Notes: generated from the sequence alone by a model not told the origin. Shown: positions 26,339 through 33,075, numbered from the stretch's first letter. The stretch: DNA of 64,000 bases from Gammaproteobacteria bacterium (GCA_965219665.1 CBDCOD010000024.1:140987-204986), one strand, 5' to 3'. Numbers and translations are program-made.

Positions 26339-27685
26339 TTAGAACTGCTGTTGTACACCAATCGTGAATCCTCGAATAATAGTAGCATCCTCCGATAGTG
26401 AGGAGCCGGAGGCGCTTATGCCGGGGGCGCCAGTGTTAAATAATGCATTTAAGTCAAAAAACCAAAGGCTAAACCCAAAATTTACCCACTGCTCATCGAC
26501 CGCTGTGTCTTGATACAGTGCTAGGCGGACTTTAGGAGAAGGGTATCCAAACTTCGCTCTTTTATTGCTATTCCAAAGCGTTGAGGCAATTTCAGCTTGT
26601 ATTGTAGTAATCTGATGAATAGCAAAAAAATTGTTTAATCCATCACGCCAGCTATTCAAATCATGCACTATAGAAAAGCGATAGCGGCGAGAGTCTGATA
26701 AATACCCCAACTCTACCCGCATTTTAGTGTCAATAAAGAAGTTACCGCGCTCAGTGTCATAAATTCTAGCAACAGTTAGGTTATCAGAAGTAGCGTTGCT
26801 TGCATAACTTGGTATATCGACTGTTTGAGGTAGCGCATCTAGTGCGTATAGGCTTAGGTGATAGTTACGGTCGTATAGAGTGATGCCAACGTCTGCATTA
26901 ATGAGGTAATTGGGATTCTCTAAACTCAGAGGAAACAAGTTTAAAGCATCAGCCAAGACAAAAGGCTCGTTATTAATTGCTATAAGCTCGCGGATGTCTC
27001 TGATACGCGAATCTATAGTTAATTCTTGTAATTTAAAGCGCCCACCTAGGGCGATTCCTATTTTTTTTGAGGTTATATGTGTGGTAAGATAGGAACTGAC
27101 GCTTGCGTTGAGAGAGCGCTTTCTGCTAAGTATATTAATAAGAGCAACATCATTTGTTAGAGAATCCAAAAATACTTGGGCATTAGCAGTTGTTAAGTCT
27201 GCAAAATCTATAAGAGCCTGATCTGCGTTCACGCCGTTTATAGAAGAAAGACCTTGGTAAAATTGAAACTGATCATCGTAGGAAATATGAACAGAGAAAG
27301 CGCTTCCTAAGGGGGTTATATCAAAGGCAAAGCGCGCACCAGCGTTAGCTGCAACAAATGGGCTATTAGAGCTAACAAAGTTGTCAAGTGTTCGCTCAAA
27401 ATTGACTATGTCAGATATGCTAATATTTTGGTCGAAAAAAAAGTCACCAAGCTCATTGATTACATCCGTTAATCCATCGTTGCCATTTGAAAGAGCGGCT
27501 GCATTAGCATGTAATTGGAAAGCAACAGCATCTGCAGAGAAATAATCCTTTAGCGCTGGGCTGGTTGGGTTTTCAGCACCAGGTAGGAATAAAAGTTTAT
27601 CAGGCGAGGGTGTTGCACTACTAAAGGCGTGTATTGCTGAGGTGTACAAGCAGACAATGGCGATTAGGATACGAATGCAATGCAC
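26339..27685 (-). CDS. Predicted secreted outer-membrane beta-barrel protein (possibly TraF-like); last gene of the motor-like operon
   Basis: Signal peptide (..TSAIHA), beta-strand-rich C-terminal half, terminal Phe (FTIGVQQQF); starts 16 bp after the motB-like stop. Confidence 0.55.
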   Translation of the reverse strand: MHCIRILIAIVCLYTSAIHAFSSATPSPDKLLFLPGAENPTSPALKDYFSADAVAFQLHANAAALSNGNDGLTDVINELGDFFFDQNISISDIVNFERTLDNFVSSNSPFVAANAGARFAFDITPLGSAFSVHISYDDQFQFYQGLSSINGVNADQALIDFADLTTANAQVFLDSLTNDVALINILSRKRSLNASVSSYLTTHITSKKIGIALGGRFKLQELTIDSRIRDIRELIAINNEPFVLADALNLFPLSLENPNYLINADVGITLYDRNYHLSLYALDALPQTVDIPSYASNATSDNLTVARIYDTERGNFFIDTKMRVELGYLSDSRRYRFSIVHDLNSWRDGLNNFFAIHQITTIQAEIASTLWNSNKRAKFGYPSPKVRLALYQDTAVDEQWVNFGFSLWFFDLNALFNTGAPGISASGSSLSEDATIIRGFTIGVQQQF

Positions 27686-27701
27686 GACTCACGCAATATG
27701 G

Positions 27702-28391
27702 TTATTTTTTATGTAGGCTAATGATAGGGTTTTGGGTATAGGTTCGCTGTATTCTAAACACGTTAATTTCAATACGTCTGTTTTTTGCTTGATTCTCTAT
27801 GATAGGCTTGCCGCCTTCATCTCTATTCGGAAATTTAGGTCGAGTGTCGCCATAGCCTGCTATTTTGATTTTATCGTCATCAAGGTGGTTTTTAACAATA
27901 TTTAAGACGCTAATAGCTCTGAACACAGAGAGTTCCCAATTTGATGAATAATTTTCATTATGAATGGGAACATCGTCAGTATGTCCATGGATTTCCACTT
28001 CGTAGTTTCTGTATTCAAGGTTTTTTATAGCCGTTACCAGCTGGCGCATGGTGAACTTTCCTTCGTTACTGAGAGCAGCCTCACCTGACTGAAAGAGCCC
28101 GGCATCAGACAGTTCAATATTTAACCCTAAAGGGTGCTTGTTAATATGTACTTGTTTTTTTAGATTGTTCTTTTCAATGATTTCATTGAGCTCTTTTTCT
28201 AGATTGCTAAAAGACTGTGTATTTGTAGAAGATTTTGAGAATGCCTGGGCAACTGCCTCAAATTTGCTTTGGTCAATAACGGAGGTAGAAATGATGAGTA
28301 CAAAAAAAACCAGCAACAGGGTGATGATGTCTGCATATGGGACTAGCCAAGACTTTGAGGCGCGAAAAGAGTAGATTCTATGTTGACCCAT
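27702..28391 (-). CDS. MotB/PomB-family stator subunit
   Basis: WLVPYADIITLLLVFFVL TM with the conserved Asp, plug helix, OmpA-like domain (GHTD, NWELSVFRA, NRRIEI). Confidence 0.95.
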   Translation of the reverse strand: MGQHRIYSFRASKSWLVPYADIITLLLVFFVLIISTSVIDQSKFEAVAQAFSKSSTNTQSFSNLEKELNEIIEKNNLKKQVHINKHPLGLNIELSDAGLFQSGEAALSNEGKFTMRQLVTAIKNLEYRNYEVEIHGHTDDVPIHNENYSSNWELSVFRAISVLNIVKNHLDDDKIKIAGYGDTRPKFPNRDEGGKPIIENQAKNRRIEINVFRIQRTYTQNPIISLHKK

Positions 28392-28395
28392 GCTT

Positions 28396-31265: not shown

Positions 31266-31273
31266 AATAATTC

Positions 31274-31882
31274 CTAAGGACCTATTTCTTGTAATTTCTC
31301 GGCAACGCCCTCTATGCTATCATCTAAACTTAAAGCTTTTTGCCAAGCATCACGTGCTTTCCCCAATTCATTGAGTTGGTAGTGGATAGAACCCTTCAGA
31401 GCCCAACTGAGGGCAGCACTATTATCAGCTTGAATACTGCGAGTTATCTCTAAAAGTGCTCTGCGGTAGCGCCCTTCTAAAAAATAGCTTTGCGCAATTA
31501 AAAAAGAGCGGTCCGCTAATTTGGTGTCACTAACTGGCTGGTCGGCTGGTGTATCAGCGGGTAGCTGTTCCTTAGCCTCGGGTAGGTTCGCCAATGTAAT
31601 GTCATAATCTACCAAGTCATCATCACCAATATGCATAACCATTTCAATATAGTCACTCTGTGTTTTTCTTCGATAAAAAATAACACCATTATTAACGCTA
31701 AAGGGGGTGTTGGCGCCCTGAGATGTAGCGTTCAGTTCTTTTGTGGCTGCGGTAGACTGAGCGTTCTCAGCCTCGGTAGAAGGGGTGGTGTCAGGTTGAG
31801 AGGCGCACCCAGATAGAGTGCCTACCAATAAACTTATGACAGTAAAGTTGGGTATGTACTGGAAGGGGAAGGAGTGCTTCAT
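31274..31882 (-). CDS. TPR-containing lipoprotein
   Basis: Lipobox LSG-C; C-terminal TPRs (AQSYFLEGRYRRAL; WALKGSIHYQLNELGKARDAWQKALSLD). Confidence 0.85.
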   Translation of the reverse strand: MKHSFPFQYIPNFTVISLLVGTLSGCASQPDTTPSTEAENAQSTAATKELNATSQGANTPFSVNNGVIFYRRKTQSDYIEMVMHIGDDDLVDYDITLANLPEAKEQLPADTPADQPVSDTKLADRSFLIAQSYFLEGRYRRALLEITRSIQADNSAALSWALKGSIHYQLNELGKARDAWQKALSLDDSIEGVAEKLQEIGP

Positions 31883-33075
31883 AAATATATGCCTATTTCT
31901 AATAAAGTGCCTGATTCAAAGGTGAATTGATTATCAGAGTAATCGGTTCGCCTAGATTCAAAAGGTGACTCGAATAATAAGCTCACATAGTAGTCCCTGC
32001 CTAATGTCCAGTCTAAACTAATCGTAGCGGAGTGACCGGGCGCGATCAATAAATCTTGCTCAATACCAAGCAGTATATCCAGTCCTTTATCATTGCTTCC
32101 AATGAGTGTAAAGCCTGCTCGGGCGCTGATGGAGAGCGCAATGTAACTGCCTGTATTATCTGGTGTAAATCCAGTTGCAGACAGTATTCGCCCACCAATG
32201 TAGTATAACACTCCATAGTCGGGTTCATAATCTTTATATCCAAAGCTTAATACAATATTTGATTTTGAGTCGCTCACGATGCTTGTTCCAGATTCTTGGA
32301 ACGTAAGTGCTTGCTGCATAAGCCCAATCCCCAAGCGAGAGTTAGACACCTCTACTATCTCATCAATGTTGTCTTCTGAAGAAATATTGGCTTCTACATG
32401 GATAGTTTCAGACCAAATGGTTTGATCTTGGTTGTCTGATATACGAATATGCAACCCGCCTTTCTGTCCATCATCTAGGGAGAAAAAGTTCCAGAGGATA
32501 ATACCATCCAATCCTTCCTCTCTATTTTTTAGAGCAAAGCTGCCCAAAGCACCATGTTGCACGATGAGACGGTTGCCTCGTATGGTGATGCGTTTATTGC
32601 CAATACAGTCAAAACTACATTCAGCCAGACTAGAACCGGGCGGGAATAGGCGTACCAATTTGTCTCTAAGTGCAGCTTCAAGGCTTTGATAGAAGTCTGT
32701 ACTGTGTTGGCGTTGTTTGAGGGGTGTTGCGTGTGAAAGAAGCGCTGTTTTAACTTTGCCACTTAACTGAGCTAATGCACCTTGCCACAAAGCATTATCG
32801 CGCAACTGTTTGAGGATAAGGTGATGCAGTAGTTCATCACGACTGTCCCTTATGAGTTGGCGTTGTGCGTTGTTATCAGTCAGAGCAGACTTAAATTGTA
32901 GATTCTGTAGCGGTATTACTGGGGAGACGACAGTTTGTTGAGGCTCGCTCTGCGGAATATTTGTAGAAGGAGTGCTTTGATCCTCTTCTGCGTATGCAGG
33001 TATCGCTGTAGCTGCAAAAATAGCCAATAATATTGACAGACCTGTTGTCCATTGAGTGTGTGGGTGCTTTTTCAT
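31879..33075 (-). CDS. Secreted protein with N-terminal alpha/beta domain and predicted C-terminal beta-barrel; first gene of the motor-like operon
   Basis: Signal peptide ending AYA; alternating-hydrophobic strands in the C-terminal part, ends LLEIGIYL; 4-bp overlap with the lipoprotein gene. Confidence 0.6.
   Translation of the reverse strand: MKKHPHTQWTTGLSILLAIFAATAIPAYAEEDQSTPSTNIPQSEPQQTVVSPVIPLQNLQFKSALTDNNAQRQLIRDSRDELLHHLILKQLRDNALWQGALAQLSGKVKTALLSHATPLKQRQHSTDFYQSLEAALRDKLVRLFPPGSSLAECSFDCIGNKRITIRGNRLIVQHGALGSFALKNREEGLDGIILWNFFSLDDGQKGGLHIRISDNQDQTIWSETIHVEANISSEDNIDEIVEVSNSRLGIGLMQQALTFQESGTSIVSDSKSNIVLSFGYKDYEPDYGVLYYIGGRILSATGFTPDNTGSYIALSISARAGFTLIGSNDKGLDILLGIEQDLLIAPGHSATISLDWTLGRDYYVSLLFESPFESRRTDYSDNQFTFESGTLLEIGIYL

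Follow-up and report, generated by a model that had tools for sequence, protein, structure and literature searches.

A conserved gene cluster encoding a natural FliF-FliG fusion with its own MotAB-type stator: a candidate flagellum-independent motor core

The window analysed here, a stretch of 64,000 nucleotides (nt) from a gammaproteobacterial genome (GCA_965219665.1, CBDCOD010000024.1:140987-204986), carries a cluster of six minus-strand genes that combines FliF- and FliG-like regions in one polypeptide with a MotA/MotB-type stator pair. The genome holding the window, G000, is a 1.82-Mb assembly of 25 contigs with 95.9% completeness; G002 is a closed 1.92-Mb relative genome of the same family. 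The open reading frame (ORF) listing placed the six genes at 26339-33075, in the order OM1, TPR lipoprotein, 685-amino-acid (aa) FliF-FliG fusion, MotA, MotB and OM2 (Table 1). OM1 and OM2 are working names for the 398-aa and 448-aa proteins at the ends of the locus. Along the six genes a 4-nt overlap is followed by gaps of 8, 26, 4 and 16 nt, and the next minus-strand gene lies beyond a gap of 52 nt. The first-pass annotation of the window had described a tightly packed minus-strand set with gaps of -4 to 26 bp, and the ORFs reproduced its coordinates exactly as well as its junctions. A promoter and terminator scan of the locus gave counts near those of shuffled sequence.

Table 1. Genes of the cluster and regions of the fusion protein, in window coordinates
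Feature	Position	Strand	Description
OM1	31879..33075	-	398 aa; signal peptide (by eye, cleavable); N-terminal alpha/beta region and predicted C-terminal small beta-barrel
TPR lipoprotein	31274..31882	-	202 aa; lipobox LSGC, variable linker, small conserved beta region, C-terminal TPR pair
FliF-FliG fusion, candidate rotor subunit	29208..31265	-	685 aa
Fusion: periplasmic FliF RBM3-like region	30603..31169	-	aa ~33-221
Fusion: second transmembrane helix, counterpart of FliF TM2	30399..30461	-	aa ~269-289; hydrophobic stretch, profile alignment
Fusion: cytoplasmic FliG middle and C-terminal domains, including torque helix	29301..29891	-	aa 459-655; Pfam
MotA/PomA-type stator A subunit	28396..29181	-	261 aa
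MotB-type stator B subunit with plug and OmpA-like peptidoglycan-binding domain	27702..28391	-	229 aa
OM2	26339..27685	-	448 aa; signal peptide; last residue Phe

Judged by its profile matches, the 685-aa protein is a natural head-to-tail fusion of FliF and FliG, composed of RBM3, the second transmembrane helix (TM2) and the C-terminal helix of FliF, followed by the N (weak), M and C domains of FliG, and it is devoid of RBM1 and RBM2. The domain names and boundaries of FliF used here follow the MS-ring structure papers. In Pfam the protein matched FliG_C with 66 bits (cut-off 23.3, aa 555-655) and FliG_M with 30 bits (cut-off 25, aa 459-523); the score of 67.6 bits for the FliG equivalog TIGR00207 was below the cut-off of 226.7 bits. 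A HMMER scan of 1.84 billion representatives listed 2432 proteins at E ≤1e-3. Among the best 150 matches were many proteins of 580-780 aa whose alignment to the query begins near residue 170 or at the start and extends to the end, and 60 long-form fusions were chosen from these 150 for alignment A1. At profile level the fusion family is large; a word-based protein search found a single real relative. All 60 members of A1 matched FliG_M and FliG_C, 43 FliG_N and 17 the FliF family YscJ_FliF_C (PF08345), which remained unmatched on the window fusion itself in Pfam. Compared with PDB chains, the A1 profile had its top match in an engineered Vibrio FliF-FliG fusion (8z4d, E 5.1e-49). It also matched FliF of Salmonella (6scn_A, E 4.3e-12, profile 24-309 versus FliF 222-558) and of Vibrio (8z5s, E 1.8e-9). 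The profile is colinear with E. coli fliF and then fliG: the N-terminal half of RBM3, a PG motif in the collar region, the C-terminal half of RBM3 with RGD..F, TM2, the FliF C-terminal helix, FliG 5-65 and FliG 111-322 follow each other, the FliG 5-65 segment being weak in the E. coli alignment (independent E-value 0.014). With the family profile the periplasmic region aligned to E. coli FliF 220-435, with a profile of seven gammaproteobacterial orthologues to FliF 231-435 (E 4e-4), and closest-orthologue profiles matched FliF RBM3 at E 4e-4 and 1e-4. The RBM3-like region consists of an N-terminal half, a P/Q/T-rich insert of collar length with a conserved LPG motif and a C-terminal half ending in RGD...FP; L116, P117, G118, G210 and D211 are near-invariant across the 60 family members. 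For RBM1-RBM2 (YscJ_FliF, PF01514) there was no match on the fusion, nor in the G000 genome at E-values up to 1. The initial call of a FliF/FliG fusion was thus right at the level of profiles, with E 4.3e-12 over FliF 222-558.

The two following genes encode relatives of flagellar stator subunits. The window MotA reached 71.3 bits for MotA_ExbB in Pfam, and its best NCBIfam model was PomA with 123.9 bits against a cut-off of 341. The window MotB matched MotB_plug (57.8 bits) and OmpA (54.7 bits) in Pfam; in NCBIfam, MotD, one of the two best stator models together with PomA, gave 140.2 bits against a cut-off of 283. Since the NCBIfam equivalog cut-offs for FliG, PomA, MotA and MotB were not reached, the proteins have to be seen as relatives, not as members, of these named flagellar groups. 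Scores of the locus proteins for models of other ion-driven systems were low: tolQ 17.1 bits (cut-off 221) and exbB2 23 bits (135) in NCBIfam, ExbD 15.4 bits (25.4) in Pfam, and ZorB1 27.5 bits (400) in NCBIfam. Functional residues of the stator are largely retained. All 25 MotB sequences, that of the window included, retain the Asp32 equivalent. In MotA, P173 is present in each of the 27 sequences and P222 in 26 of them, and the window MotA has both. The R90 position of MotA carries K or R in 21 of the 27 sequences, and the E98 equivalent is retained as Asp in G000 and G002. On the rotor side, with the torque helix numbered after E. coli R281, D288 and D289 as quoted in PMC12505986, 85 of the 91 sequences have R or K at the R281 position, which is conserved in G000 and G002, and 50 of them have an acidic residue at position 289. 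Few sequences hint at a possible co-variation between rotor and stator: MotA R90 is replaced by T (G000) or E (G002) where FliG D288 is R or Q, and a third genome, G301, combines a MotA arginine with EE in FliG. The fusion of a fourth genome, G130, also has EE at positions 288/289; its MotA is absent from that alignment.

The partner proteins of the cluster were characterized by profiles and structure models. The TPR lipoprotein matched TPR_2 with 34.4 bits in Pfam, its lipoprotein cysteine is invariant across seven orthologues (alignment A6), and matches of its profile were limited to generic TPR proteins. OM1 and OM2 belong to no Pfam or NCBIfam family, in the case of OM2 not even at E 10 in Pfam; their profiles matched nothing in the PDB, and a word-based protein search returned near-identical copies only. 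The AlphaFold2 model of OM1 had a mean predicted local distance difference test (pLDDT) of 64, with an alpha/beta region at aa ~67-230; some eight long strands, modelled with a pLDDT of ~80-90, occupy aa 245-397. In Foldseek the strands resembled the OmpA transmembrane domain, Ail, OmpX and OmpW (E 4.5e-5 to 1e-3, target TM-score ~0.5). As modelled, OM1 is a secreted and probably outer-membrane protein. The model of OM2 was unusable (pLDDT 29.7). Its nearest Atlas clusters were TraF_2/PorP_SprF/DUF5723 with 0.97, a lead only, since its recognition value, 2243, does not reach the mark of 2300. The sole OM2 orthologue found is encoded in G002 (34% identity), and the OM2 profile had no match in the metagenome loci described below; by these searches OM2 is a lineage-specific add-on of G000 and G002. 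The label of outer-membrane barrels, which the first-pass annotation had given to both proteins, is therefore supported for OM1 by the modelled strands and their Foldseek matches, and not for OM2 with its unusable model.

The fusion and its gene neighbours were followed through genomes and metagenomes. Among 400 scored genomes of a class-wide sample 187 matched the fusion profile, seven of them along the full length (G000, G002, G033, G130, G301, G071 and G375, from six families); the remaining matches are canonical FliGs of ~340 aa. A phylum-wide sample of 400 other genomes contained no further fusion. G003 and G004 complete the set of nine fusion-bearing genomes. In G002 the complete set of six genes recurs in unchanged order with 34-57% identity, and a related-locus search with a narrower fusion alignment (A3) returned one locus, that of G002. 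The TPR gene adjoins the fusion gene in six of the nine genomes and is one gene away in G375. MotA and MotB are encoded within the cluster in G000, G002, G033, G301 and G071 and elsewhere in G130; TPR, fusion, MotA and MotB genes are clustered in G033, G301 and G071. An OM1-type gene lies beside the TPR gene in G000, G002, G301 and G071. For metagenomes, alignment A8 of seven representatives, ~22-25% identical to the window fusion, was used for scanning, and the neighbouring genes were scored with profiles made from the genome orthologues. From 32 loci obtained, nine were excluded, two without a called fusion ORF and seven with less than 3.6 kb downstream, so that 23 with at least 3.6 kb downstream were eligible for the linkage count. 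In 22 of these 23 the order reads fusion, an OM1-like gene of 357-442 aa, TPR lipoprotein, MotA and MotB, and these loci represent each of the six 70%-identity clusters with an eligible locus. A comparison of the middle gene with OM1 by hhalign gave a probability of 92% (E 6.5e-7, 295 columns), and the middle-gene profile matched the OM1-type protein of G071 at 2.9e-9. Because the middle gene is related to OM1 and OM2 is confined to G000 and G002, the conserved unit comprises five genes. The linkage of outer-membrane and lipoprotein genes to motAB and the fusion, on which the interpretation as a joint system depends, is found as OM1-type/TPR linkage in G002, G301 and G071 and in the 22 metagenome loci; the six-gene unit first proposed has to be reduced by OM2. 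Atlas cluster labels place the module in several phyla.

Several observations were made on relatives of the fusion and on its neighbours. G000 encodes a second, shorter fusion paralogue outside the window, on contig C16 at ~48300-51190 (locus L086 6300-9186), with 486 aa, an RBM3-like region with RGD motif, one transmembrane helix and a FliG_C match of 27.7 bits. The gene immediately upstream encodes a 481-aa Sel1-repeat protein, homologous to a Sel1+SPOR protein in the G071 cluster (E 1.6e-22). The pair of paralogue and Sel1 gene is also present in G002, while G003 has the paralogue alone; the flanks are housekeeping genes (fabH/D/G-like genes, and a GyrB/ParE-type topoisomerase subunit in G002). 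In G003 (L012 7861-11569) and G004 (L013), which have a fusion without MotB, a gene for a KAP-family P-loop NTPase starts 20 nt after the fusion. In G033 (L014 10138-13906) the genes of MotB and of a MoxR ATPase overlap at the start of the latter, and DUF58, DUF4381 and VWA genes come next in a Bat-like operon. A MoxR fragment is located at the end of contig C15 of G000, the window fusion has a weak BatA_N match at its transmembrane helix (E 0.0025), and DUF4381 was matched by two of the 60 family members. G130 encodes, two genes from the fusion (L047 6454-7197), a 247-aa protein with a glucosaminidase domain (PF01832), the family to which the C-terminal half of FlgJ belongs; the neighbourhood may be a coincidence.

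Flagellar genes were searched in the whole genomes. In the G000 assembly there were no matches to FlhA (PF00771), YscJ_FliF (PF01514), Flagellin_N and Flg_bb_rod. FliMN_C (PF01052) was also without a match, the N-terminal family of FliM not having been searched separately, and the single match to FliP (PF00813) had 15.9 bits, below the cut-off of 26.9. Neither FlhA nor canonical FliG was matched in G002, G033, G130 and G301. The absence of flagellar genes, initially noted for the window, was thereby upheld genome-wide for the tested families of FlhA, FliP, rod, flagellin and FliMN_C. A flagellar gene set complete except for fliF, fliG and motAB, from which the cluster could have been displaced, was not found elsewhere in G000, and G002 is without FlhA and canonical FliG. 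A flagellar gene set occurs alongside the module in G071, with full-length FlhA and canonical FliG. As G071 carries the module in addition to its own FlhA and canonical FliG, the module is not a displaced part of a flagellum.

Two trees related the module to flagellar homologues. The tree of the FliG M and C domains (110 rows, quick maximum likelihood (ML) search, LG+G4, unrooted, rows picked by similarity to the query) included 60 long representatives together with eight genome fusions. Canonical FliGs were represented by 23 sequences and that of E. coli, and of the 19 representatives with 300-400 aa, 18 were used. The tree was split into 24 canonical FliGs with ten short representatives and all 68 fusions with eight short representatives, with a support of 100 in the SH-like approximate likelihood ratio test (SH-aLRT). 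The MotA tree (29 rows, careful ML search, unrooted) was built with the best match per locus from 20 hand-picked genomes, again picked by similarity. The five fusion-linked MotAs and the unlinked MotA of G130 formed one clan (support 100/99), and 23 other MotAs were outside, including the second MotA homologue of G071 and E. coli MotA. Within these samples the trees show that the FliG parts of the fusions and their MotAs are each separate from the flagellar ones. They show this separateness, not the direction of descent, since both are unrooted and their rows were chosen by query similarity. These results bear on the possibility that the locus is a decaying remnant of a lost flagellum, functionless and kept by chance. 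Such an origin would fit a host without any of the other flagellar genes tested, and scores below the NCBIfam equivalog cut-offs for FliG, PomA and MotB. However, all six ORFs are intact, the key residues are conserved, the five-gene order recurs in lineages of ~22-25% identity, the FliG parts and MotAs form clans apart from the flagellar ones, and G071 possesses FlhA and canonical FliG besides the module. The remnant explanation is already contradicted by these data and extremely improbable.

We consider it fairly probable that the locus specifies a motor core independent of the flagellum, either a derivative or a sister of its flagellar counterpart, and with it an undescribed ion-driven machine of the cell envelope. 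From the gene set, the homologies, the gene order, the key residues and the absence of flagellar genes we infer ring formation, rotation, partner contacts and output as follows. Many copies of the fusion would form a ring in the membrane, with an S-ring-like face in the periplasm and a FliG ring on the cytoplasmic face. The single chain would fix the ratio of FliF part to FliG at 1:1, and the FliF tail behind the membrane helix would be the segment that normally holds FliG. The dedicated MotA/MotB complex, anchored to the peptidoglycan by the OmpA-like domain of MotB, would push the torque helix of FliG by ion flow through the MotB aspartate. Without FliM and FliN no switching is expected, and as export gate, rod, hook and filament are missing, nothing should be exported or propelled in the manner of a flagellum. 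The movement would be received or restrained by its likely partners, the TPR lipoprotein in the periplasm and OM1 in the outer membrane, or they may act as bearings. The output would be work on the envelope or the outer membrane. The strongest version of this proposal states that a torque-generating core, consisting of an RBM3-FliG ring with its own MotAB and wired to outer-membrane partners, exists without type III secretion and represents a new class of ion-driven rotary device turning an envelope-spanning assembly. In this full form we regard it as improbable. The earlier proposal of a stand-alone stator and rotor ring coupled to the outer membrane is retained as far as a real, conserved, non-flagellar module of stator and rotor genes is concerned; the coupling of rotor, lipoprotein and barrel is suggested by synteny.

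Several points weigh against a motor core. Ring and rotation are read from sequence and synteny. The window fusion alone had a non-significant E-value of 5.9 with FliF, and profiles were needed for the assignment (E 4e-4 to 4e-12). An OM1-type gene was detected in just four of the nine fusion genomes (G000, G002, G301 and G071). The gene absences in G000 taken alone are weak evidence, because this assembly of 25 contigs had no TolQ/ExbB, ExbD/TolR or TolB_N match at all and nine of nine examined relatives, including G002 with the full cluster, have TolQ and TolB; the Tol gap is probably an assembly effect. The argument for the missing flagellum is therefore carried by the closed genome of G002. 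The E98 position of MotA is acidic in just 15 of 27 family members. The equivalents of D288/D289 are RL in G000 and QL in G002, with the MotA R90 position occupied by T and E, respectively. With nonacidic 288/289 positions and an altered R90, a part of the canonical charge pairing is missing there, and the interface of rotor and stator in G000 and G002 is either remodelled or weakened. Finally, no MotB_plug match was present anywhere in G003, G004 and G375. As these three genomes retain the fusion, it can persist without this stator, and the rotation proposed in the first-pass annotation is not supported as stated.

The same evidence is relevant for a static function. The fusion could be an envelope scaffold or anchor: assembled into an inner-membrane ring or cluster, it would organize periplasmic and outer-membrane partners, while MotAB would serve only as a peptidoglycan tether or an ion-gated regulator and no continuous rotation would take place. 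A fusion that stays intact in the three genomes without MotB_plug, with FliG_C still at 61.4 bits in G003, agrees with this explanation, as do the nonacidic D288/D289 equivalents in G000 and G002 and the 486-aa paralogue of G000 (FliG_C 27.7 bits), which has no stator beside it and is paired with a Sel1-repeat protein. Where MotAB is present, however, the channel aspartate and both prolines are invariant (P222 in 26 of 27) and MotB still has its plug; a pure tether would not readily account for this. The R or K at the R281 position of FliG in 85 of 91 sequences and a dedicated MotA clan that tracks the fusion also argue against a static scaffold, which we consider rather unlikely.

Another alternative to the motor core turning its partners is a Tol-Pal-like or division-site machine. 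The work of the stator on the ring would be passed to the lipoprotein and the barrel, which would hold the outer membrane or constrict it, perhaps at the septum. In its layout the locus parallels Tol-Pal, where a motor in the inner membrane is likewise combined with a TPR protein in the periplasm, a lipoprotein and a protein of the outer membrane. Inside the G071 cluster a Sel1 protein with SPOR domain is encoded and a Sel1 protein inside the G375 cluster, and a homologous Sel1 protein adjoins the second paralogue in G000 and G002; the SPOR domain, however, was detected in G071 only. The lack of TolQ/ExbB, ExbD/TolR and TolB matches in G000 would be in line with such a function, but the assembly effect is the probable cause, with TolQ and TolB encoded in all nine relatives. 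Overall, we judge a machine of this type to be quite unlikely. A replacement of Tol-Pal by the module was rejected, as all nine relatives, among them G002 with its full cluster, possess TolQ and TolB.

The nearest known system to the candidate motor core is the flagellar motor's core. Both have RBM3, TM2 and the C-terminal helix of FliF, the M and C domains of FliG with R281, and MotA/MotB with plug, OmpA-like domain, Asp32, P173 and P222. In contrast to the flagellar motor, the module is without RBM1 and RBM2, FliF and FliG form one polypeptide, and FlhA, FliP, rod, flagellin and FliM/N were not found. In place of rod and ring proteins it has a TPR lipoprotein and an OM1-type protein as conserved partners, and its FliG and MotA fall into clans of their own. 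Deletion-fusion mutants of FliF and FliG in Salmonella are reportedly functional. The engineered Vibrio FliF-FliG fusion (8z4d/8z4g) has the same head-to-tail order as the window protein and is reported to form rings (PMC11481574, PMC10941966). Engineered fusions contain full-length FliF with RBM1-3 and work inside a complete flagellum, whereas the window fusion is natural, without RBM1 and RBM2, and without a flagellum. A natural FliF-FliG fusion has been described for Chlamydiaceae by Bergeron; according to that preprint it has ~330 aa, RBM2 and one further RBM-like region and only an M-like part of FliG, is discussed as a type III secretion system partner, and FliF, FliL and FlhA are the only chlamydial flagellar genes listed (bioRxiv 10.1101/023564). 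The two proteins share the natural fusion of FliF with a FliG-like region in bacteria not thought to be flagellated, and they differ in RBM3, FliG M and C and the own MotAB of the window protein.

Other ion-driven 5:2 motors, with non-flagellar outputs, are TolQR-TolA-Pal, ExbBD-TonB, GldLM with the type IX secretion system, AglRQS and ZorAB (listed in part in PMC9389320 and PMC12505986). The module shares with them an inner-membrane motor of the MotA/ExbB family linked to periplasmic and outer-membrane partners. They are not known to use a FliG/FliF ring, whereas the stator of the module is of the PomA/MotB kind with a plug and has a FliG-bearing ring protein as partner. In a classification of MotAB relatives from 2025, flagellar ion transporters are set apart from generic ones; its accessible text mentions no FliG-bearing non-flagellar partner (PMC12505986). 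A 2025 survey reported rotor proteins in 11% of non-motile species and raised an alternative function (PMC12199754). Full-text searches of the open literature did not turn up a description of the module; subscription journals and supplementary files were outside this scope, and the supplementary gene tables of PMC12505986 or PMC12199754 could list such genes.

If the assignment as a motor core is correct, the module would put the rotor-stator pair to a new use in bacteria without flagella. To our knowledge, torque generation by FliG and MotAB is known from flagella only, and the other known ion-driven 5:2 motors act on different partners. Provided that the family branched before canonical fliF and fliG, FliF would be a composite of an SctJ-like RBM1-2 part and such a rotor protein. 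With such an early branching, motor and export apparatus would have separate origins. With the module it becomes testable whether the flagellum's motor and its export part had histories of their own, an old question. It may also serve as a small system for studies of ring assembly and torque, with five genes, one rotor protein and a fixed 1:1 stoichiometry.

Two observations concern regions apart from the cluster. On contig C25 of G000, outside the window, four genes at 163382-168297 (L054) encode a weak MotA_ExbB-like protein (355 aa, 20.6 bits), membrane proteins of 173 aa and 586 aa and an FGE-sulfatase-domain protein (528 aa). Together they may form a further ion-driven system that is as yet unclassified; eight of nine examined relatives have ORFs of 328-381 aa that match MotA_ExbB weakly. 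Inside the window, the region 44001-50000 has a G+C content of ~0.385-0.397 compared with ~0.44 elsewhere, and the sign of the GC skew flips at ~40-46 kb.

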